Below, piece after piece: positions 12,570 to 12,767 of a stretch of DNA of 14,199 nt. The stretch is from a virus. Its lineage: Duplodnaviria > Heunggongvirae > Uroviricota > Caudoviricetes. How positions within the stretch are numbered: the stretch's first letter is position 1; each line of letters begins with the position of its first letter. The notes below the pieces were generated by a model. The model worked only from the letters and a program-made list of their open reading frames with translations. It was not told the DNA's origin and ran no database searches. The translations under genes and the position numbers were made by a program. The stretch lies in the IMG/VR virus record IMGVR_UViG_2740892231_000004; one strand, 5' to 3'.

Positions 12570-12649
12570 GAATTATCCTATAAATCATTCTTTAGTGTTT
12601 AGTTGTTAATTATTTTTAATCTGTCTTGTCAGAAAGTGCGAAATCGATC

Positions 12650-12679
12650 TTGCATTTACATTTTATTACATAATATAAA
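12650..12679 (+). promoter_or_regulatory. Candidate sigma70 promoter (TTGCAT, 18 nt, TATAAA) overlapping an OmpR-box-like ATTTACATTTTATTACATAATAT
   Basis: Read directly from the AT-rich leader about 90-120 nt upstream of the porin ATG. The TTTACATTTT core resembles OmpR sites of ompC/ompF as recalled. No scoring was possible. Confidence 0.25.
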
Positions 12680-12767
12680 TTGAACTAAGAATTTGTATTA
12701 AAATATTTTAATTTTTGTTCATGACATCTGAATGCATGAATAGTTCAGTTTAAATAAGGATTAAATC

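Follow-up and report, generated by a model that had tools for sequence, protein, structure and literature searches.

The leader of a porin gene carried by a lambdoid prophage contains one strong OmpR-type box, at positions 12655–12674 of the DNA analysed here. Judged from its sequence, OmpR on balance probably binds this box and controls the promoter of the gene, and if it does act here we favour activation over repression. A preliminary description of this DNA had suggested that the porin may be wired into the EnvZ/OmpR osmoregulation of the host. One part of that suggestion stands: a link to OmpR is likely, given a significant and partly conserved site in what is predicted to be the position of F3 and C3 at ompF and ompC. 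The other part does not, since with a single site an osmotic switch in the style of ompC and ompF is not indicated.

The window, by which we mean the whole stretch of 14,199 nt, comes from the late and tail region of a lambdoid E. coli prophage. After the tape-measure gene (8993–12235) comes a gene for a gpM-like minor tail protein (12228–12569, + strand; Pfam Phage_min_tail, E = 3.2e-33), which PGAP labels ‘phage tail protein’ in identical loci and which forms the upstream boundary of an insert; the downstream neighbour is the gpL gene, starting at 14132. The insert opens with a leader of 198 bp (12570–12767, + strand; 77% A+T, 23% G+C) that holds the regulatory region and shows four conserved islands in alignments of 17 variants. 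The porin gene itself (12768–13922, + strand) encodes 384 aa and matches Pfam Porin_1 with E = 5.9e-144; its Shine-Dalgarno sequence, AAGGA (12756–12760, + strand), is invariant across the leader variants and is separated by 7 nt from the ATG at 12768. The protein belongs with the NmpC/Lc/OmpD clade, at 68–69% identity both to NmpC/OmpD-type porins from 42 phage records and to OmpD-like chromosomal porins of Enterobacter, Citrobacter and Salmonella; its best PDB matches are OmpC, PhoE and OmpK36. PGAP labels it ‘porin OmpC’, and some sources give the exact protein the name ‘outer membrane porin protein LC’. M and L are adjacent in related Stx phages (in the Stx1a phage LC744192 both are matched within 404 bp), which identifies the porin segment as a moron-type insert. 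The porin gene is thus an insert, or moron, between the phage tail genes M and L, and the earlier use of the terms ‘phage porin’ and ‘moron’ was well founded, the first by the Porin_1 match and the second by the neighbouring genes. With lambdoid morons such as lom and bor it shares the A+T-rich insert, a promoter-like region and intrinsic terminator of its own, and the orientation of the late operon; it differs from them in its cargo, a complete general porin accompanied by a structured 3' RNA.

The exact porin protein is encoded on at least 1,000 public contigs. When at least 80% of the query is covered, the M-porin-L arrangement is present in 92 of 5,426 complete E. coli genomes, and many of these are from human STEC isolates; a recognisable moron leader is found in about 110 of the 5,426. 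Our literature search on the M-L porin cassette returned no paper. In strain DETEC-P1056 (L004; NZ_CP116169.1, 2098–5156) the porin gene and its leader are intact and the prophage around them has decayed: a tape-measure fragment, a frameshifted gpL and remnants of IS66 and other transposases are left, with no gpM. The intact state of porin and leader in these remains suggests that the cassette has been kept for the benefit of the host. Separately, one IMG genome contributes three prophage contigs (L112, L116 and L117; IMG/VR UViG 643348545_000009, _000013 and _000008), each with a porin cassette and a leader of the L005 type, so that one strain can hold several copies.

The sequence first singled out in the leader, ATTTACATTTTATTACATAATAT at 12654–12676 with its TTTACATTTT core, reads as given, the core lying at 12655–12664. 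The complete box (12655–12674, + strand) is built of two 10-bp direct half-sites, TTTACATTTT at 12655–12664 and ATTACATAAT at 12665–12674. For scoring we used an OmpR log-odds position weight matrix (PWM) made from the 24 aligned sites of Gao et al. 2011 (PMC3050692, Additional file 3), less three micF/ompC duplicates, which leaves 21 non-redundant sites. The box scores 12.82, the highest value among all 14,199 bases on both strands, the runner-up reaching 8.9. This ranks about fifth among the 21 characterised OmpR sites, which range from 5.3 to 15.5, and falls between C1 (13.0) and ompS1 (11.7); with C1, F1 and the Salmonella csgD site removed from the matrix the score is still 11.5. When the leader was shuffled 20,000 times with its dinucleotides preserved, the box score was reached on either strand in 0.33% of cases, or 1.1% for the reduced matrix without those three sites. 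A control scan covered 955,000 positions surrounding 80 enterobacterial porin genes; no more than 11 hits equalled or exceeded the box score, and ten of these lie on the sense strand, 160–200 bp upstream of a porin start codon, where they are C1/F1-type sites. The leader thus scores above the A+T-rich background (12.82; shuffle P = 0.003), and the site proposed in the preliminary description stands.

Other descriptions of the OmpR motif agree with this result. The repeat derived from OmpR ChIP-exo, GTTACATTTTGTTACAT (Seo et al. 2017, PMC5438342), matches 12655–12671 with 2 mismatches, and none of 200 window shuffles gave such a match. The 20-bp OmpR format (Harlocker/Yoshida), with A-C at positions 4–5 and 14–15 and a T-rich spacer, is also found in the box. 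Position 11 departs from that format, being A in place of G; G stands there in 21 of the 24 sites of the published matrix, and F4 and tppB also have A. Genome-wide, the sequence specificity of OmpR is modest, and its ChIP targets show no strong motif (PMC3945435). The 15-mer TTGCATTTACATTTT at 12650–12664 is identical to the C1 site of K-12 ompC (L002) together with its 5' flank, and the rest of the leader is unlike ompC. As other cassette variants do not keep the TTGCA flank, its sharing with ompC C1 is probably coincidental. None of 80 chromosomal porin loci has a leader homologous overall to that of the moron; the box alone matched, to C1 sites of the ompC type.

Conservation of the leader was followed in 36 copies from E. 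coli genomes and IMG/VR contigs, which reduce to 17 distinct sequences in about five deep lineages, down to about 74% identity. In these 17 variants 42% of the leader columns are invariant, and the conserved islands are AAAGTG (12633–12638), TTTACAT (12655–12661), AATATTTT (12702–12709), most of GTTCATGACA (12717–12726), TGAAtAGTTC (12737–12746) and the Shine-Dalgarno sequence. The TTTACAT of the first half-site is invariant in all 17 variants and is the second-longest invariant run of the leader; it has stayed unchanged, against a divergence of about 26% or more in its flanks, and the chance that all seven of these pre-specified columns would be invariant is P ~0.002. A4C5 within it is accordingly invariant, as are T10 and C15 of the box. 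The second half-site is more variable, occurring as GTTACAT, ATTACAT, GAAACAA, GTTGCAT, CTTACAT and GTTACGT, with a mean pairwise identity of 0.61 against a leader average of 0.73. Changes at its high-information positions are G11A in this window, G11C in L007, A14G in L006 and A16G in L095. The L005 type exchanges GTTACA for GAAACA, an alternative that is present in C1, C2 and F2 and that fits OmpR and not RstA or CpxR. When substitutions across the lineages were compared with random ones, they did not spare the PWM score significantly more (P = 0.15).

The family consensus of the box, TTTACATTTTGTTACAT, has a PWM score of 14.9, and all 17 variants score at least 10.2. The A at 12665 (box position 11) is derived and found only in this window, the other 16 variants having G in 14 cases and C in the two of the L007 lineage; the change from G to A lowers the score from 14.9 to 12.8 and breaks an exact RstA box. 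A leader identical to that of the window occurs in no complete E. coli genome, the closest being 99.2% identical. A known site of comparable form is the composite OmpR/RstA/CpxR site of the csgD promoter (GTTACATTTAGTTACAT), which like the moron family consensus is a single high-scoring direct repeat fitting all three motifs. The csgD gene belongs to another class, and co-occupancy by the three regulators is documented there but only presumed for the moron.

The promoter that had been proposed next to the box, TTGCAT (12650–12655) with TATAAA (12674–12679), does not hold up, as TTGCAT matches TTGACA at 3 of 6 positions and neither hexamer is conserved in related leaders. TTGCAT was also rejected as a promoter element on the ground that the same flank precedes C1 of K-12 ompC (cccTTGCATTTACATTTTgaaacatcta), and TTTACA was rejected as a -35 for want of a -10 at 16–18 bp. 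A consensus scan of 12500–14199 gave no sigma-70 match on the + strand, and the pair that we favour, TTGAAC and TATTTT, likewise went uncalled. Island conservation and homology to the nmpC promoter point to TTGAAC (12680–12685, + strand) as the probable -35 and TATTTT (12704–12709) as the probable -10. The former is nearly conserved, and its counterpart in the nmpC leader is TTGAAA; ATTGAA (12679–12684) is invariant across the leader types of E. coli genomes and broken in one of the 17 variants, IMG/VR L113, which reads ATTAAA (hexamer TTAAAC). The predicted -10 belongs to AATATTTT (12702–12709, + strand), the longest invariant run of the leader, and nmpC has GAATATTT at the matching place. 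The spacer between the two hexamers is 18 bp (16 bp in the L007 type), and the predicted core promoter makes 8 of 12 consensus matches.

The start of the transcript can be placed by the same homology. The promoter-proximal blocks common to the moron and nmpC/lc, TTGAA..AATATTT..TGACATC..AATAGTTCA..AAGG..ATGAAAAAA..ACAGTGGCA, follow one another at nearly equal spacing. By 5' RACE the nmpC transcript starts at a G, and its promoter, PnmpC, has been described as typical for sigma-70 (PMC11677980). From the mapped nmpC start and the shared blocks, we infer that the moron transcript should start at about G12717, with a 5' UTR of about 51 nt. The end of such a transcript might fold into a 5'-terminal hairpin, GUUCAUG(N11)CAUGAAU (12717–12741, + strand), whose seven pairs are kept in six variants by one-sided changes only; having no compensatory changes and being no more stable than shuffles (fold z-score 0.25), this hairpin was rejected. 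An alternative promoter, TTGTTC (12715–12720) with AATAGT (12739–12744), would shift the box to -96, the C1/F1 position. It fails because the L004 and L006 types no longer have its TTG, and nmpC too is without a -35 there.

With a start at 12717 the box spans about -62 to -43 and leaves a gap of 5 nt to the predicted -35. In the K-12 sequence, F3 of ompF ends 5 nt and C3 of ompC 4 nt before the -35, the promoter-proximal site of such promoters lying at about -60 to -41. With these genes (C1–C3 and F1–F4) the moron has in common the 20-bp format of two half-sites and, on the predicted -35, a gap equal or close to theirs. Of the 20 positions of the box, 16 agree with F1 and 14 with C1, and it lies 113 bp from the ATG, as compared with 179 bp for C1 and 210 bp for F1. 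The number of sites is different. At ompC and ompF three contiguous sites of graded affinity extend from about -100 to -40, against one in the moron, and the distal F4, which only ompF has, is missing. No + strand hit of at least 5.2 stands in 20-bp phase with the box, while the same search showed C1–C3 and F1–F3 in the ompC and ompF controls. Nor does the window contain a distal F4-type site above 8.9, the DNA upstream of the leader being the gpM coding region. A minus-strand hit at 12690 was considered as an extra OmpR site and rejected, since its score of 8.9 is within 1 SD of the shuffle maximum. The tandem sites implied by the preliminary description therefore come down to one 20-bp site without a C2/C3-like or F4-like partner. 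Without a tandem array the graded and reciprocal osmoregulation of ompC and ompF cannot be inferred, and a differential-affinity mechanism cannot work the same way in the moron.

Closer in gene content is nmpC of DLP12, or lc of phage PA-2, likewise a phage-borne porin gene of the same clade at 68–69% identity. The two systems share an OmpR-type site about 100 bp from the ATG (-101 in nmpC, -113 in the moron) and the layout of the 3' region, with a common core and terminator. They differ in location, the moron cassette lying between tail genes M and L and the nmpC/lc cassette presumably near lysis genes, and the leader of nmpC further upstream is not alignable with that of the moron. The OmpR site of the moron is far stronger (12.8 vs 8.7) and does not overlap the -35. 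PnmpC also has two CRP sites besides its operator overlapping the -35, and neither feature is found in the moron, where CRP half-sites reach at most 6 of 10 positions, as compared with 8 of 10 in nmpC. The CRP input of nmpC has apparently been lost from the moron leader. The invariant run of six, AAAGTG (12633–12638, + strand), 17 nt upstream of the box, was examined as a CRP site and rejected, with at most 6 of 10 half-site positions here and 8 of 10 in the L006-type leader and nmpC. In the L006 type AAAGTG extends to TGTGAAACTTGTCTCT, which gives the 8 of 10 CRP half-site positions, and the centre of such a site would be at about -72.5 from the predicted start.

These comparisons suggest a simple mechanism. 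The box would be bound by one dimer of a phosphorylated response regulator of the OmpR family, most probably OmpR, and would serve the moron's own promoter, used in the lysogen. As a site of C1/F1 grade in the F3/C3 position, it may allow OmpR-P to recruit RNA polymerase to a weak promoter; the predicted core, with its 8 of 12 matches, is weak enough to suit activator dependence. OmpR activates from a site so placed, and the title of a 1990 paper by Maeda and Mizuno states that ‘a single OmpR-binding site is capable of activating the promoter’. OmpR may also counteract silencing by H-NS on acquired DNA of 77% A+T, and a role of OmpR acting against H-NS has been discussed (PMC3945435). The homology to PnmpC, where the start is mapped and an OmpR operator known, was counted in favour of OmpR control. 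A single site of C1/F1 grade would be filled already at low OmpR-P, and since it has no low-affinity C2/C3 partner and no F4, the expected behaviour is dependence on ompR, saturation at low OmpR-P and little osmotic modulation.

The homology to nmpC can also be read the other way, with OmpR binding the box and repressing, as reported for nmpC, so that the prophage porin would be low at high OmpR-P (high osmolarity, acid). The nmpC gene is listed as OmpR-repressed (PMC5438342; PMC11677980) and is strongly down-regulated at acid pH (PMC10746267), and the moron and nmpC leaders have their promoter-proximal blocks in common. The position of the sites argues for activation in the moron: the nmpC operator, GAAACCAAAACTTACATCTT (PWM 8.7), overlaps its TTGAAA -35 by 2 nt, whereas between the moron box and its predicted -35 there are 5 nt, a displacement of 7 bp that puts the box in the activator position of F3 and C3. 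A weak predicted core promoter is likewise what an activated promoter would be expected to have, and we regard repression as credible but rather unlikely. A different question is which member of the family binds. CpxR (envelope stress) or RstA (PhoQP-RstBA, acid, low Mg), alone or sharing the site with OmpR in the way known from csgD, ompF and ompC, would be an unlikely but reasonable choice. RstA and OmpR sites are reported to overlap extensively at csgD (PMC4117788), and CpxR is reported to regulate ompF and ompC (Batchelor et al. 2005, as quoted in PMC9600279). On the minus strand, GTAAT-AAAAT-GTAAA agrees at 9 of 10 positions with the CpxR motif GTAAA-N5-GTAAA (PMC9600279; spacer N5-6 in a wider form), and the L005 and L006 types at 7–8 of 10, all of these being plain counts of matching positions. 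The invariant TTTACAT contains one perfect GTAAA, and the lineage changes at G11 and A16 leave the fit to the CpxR pentamers unaffected. The RstA box TACATNTNGTTACA (PMC4117788) is exact in the L001, L004, L090 and L093 types; the window reads TACATTTTATTACA, one mismatch (G to A) away. Two other lineages speak against both regulators, as L005 (GTTTC) and L006 (GCAAC) damage the second CpxR pentamer and the TACA repeat of RstA, while the corresponding GAAACA of L005 (as in C1, C2 and F2) and GTTGCA of L006 (as in omrA) are acceptable OmpR half-sites. RstA, moreover, reportedly binds DNA with less affinity than other response regulators do (PMC4117788). The lineage variants discriminate only weakly between OmpR, RstA and CpxR, with GAAACA and GTTGCA favouring OmpR.

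It is finally conceivable, and in our view quite improbable, that the match has no regulator-specific function and is an A+T-rich upstream element (UP-element-like or a nucleation site for H-NS) or a relic of the captured porin's promoter. The leader is 77% A+T and OmpR PWMs favour A/T; the box sits where UP elements lie, at about -40 to -60; the second half-site changes at least as fast as expected of neutral sequence; and the mutation-tolerance test was not significant (P = 0.15). Composition by itself does not readily account for the box, however, as only 0.3% of composition-matched shuffles reach its score, and the invariant signature of A4C5 and C15, one helical turn apart, is not an A- or T-tract. 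The constancy of TTTACAT between flanks that have diverged by about 26% or more is also difficult to reconcile with a match of this kind.

Beyond the porin gene lies a structured 3' region (13946–14069, + strand), with hairpins at 13946–75, 13978–14000 and 14010–39 followed by the conserved, single-stranded TTAACTTTCTGTTATTACCTTTATTG. In an alignment of six cassette variants, compensatory base changes are found in all three stems. The moron is closed by an intrinsic terminator (14096–14119, + strand), GGGGCGCGTCTGCGCCCC followed by TTTTTT, with 7 G-C pairs. The nmpC 3' region and window positions 13923–14119 have in common AAC(C/T)TTCTGTTAT..TACC(C)TTTATT, a core of about 25 nt, and the GGGGCG..CGCCCC terminator, the overall blastn similarity of the two 3' regions being weak (E = 0.2). 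The nmpC 3' region encodes the IpeX RNA, which represses OmpC and OmpF, and the structured region of the moron is a candidate IpeX-like RNA. An Rfam search of 12400–14199 gave no hit for the 3' element, the sole match being a chance one to NsiR9 (E = 0.32). At the other end of the porin gene, CAGTGGC at 12781–12787 (codons 5–7) complements the RybB sRNA at its 5' seed, which we take to be GCCACUG, and the same ACAGTGGCA is present in nmpC. The latter gene has been reported as a RybB target (PMC3333887).

OmpR boxes before enterobacterial porin genes are textbook knowledge and the phage porin gene nmpC is already in the OmpR regulon, so that the present results extend known biology and do not challenge it. 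What seems particular to the moron is a single, very strong proximal site, displaced relative to the nmpC operator, and the apparent loss of CRP input. If OmpR controls the promoter, a general porin of prophages, found mostly in Shiga-toxin-producing E. coli, would join the envelope-stress regulon of the host; the outer-membrane permeability of the lysogen (entry of antibiotics and bile) and its display of phage receptors could then change, and the moron would offer a clean natural example of a single high-affinity promoter-proximal site, which separates dependence on OmpR from osmotic switching. A bolder reading, which we put forward as a doubtful one, is that the M-L insert may be a self-contained ‘porin replacement module’, in which an OmpR-dependent single-box promoter, a porin of the NmpC/Lc class and a covarying IpeX-like 3' RNA silencing host OmpC and OmpF would have moved from the lysis region into the tail operon and would swap the major porins of lysogens by way of the host's envelope regulator. 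Persistence of the cassette in a decayed prophage and its presence in up to three prophages per genome are noted alongside. Were such a module real, permeability would be altered, and OmpC and OmpF would be removed as receptors for competing phages.
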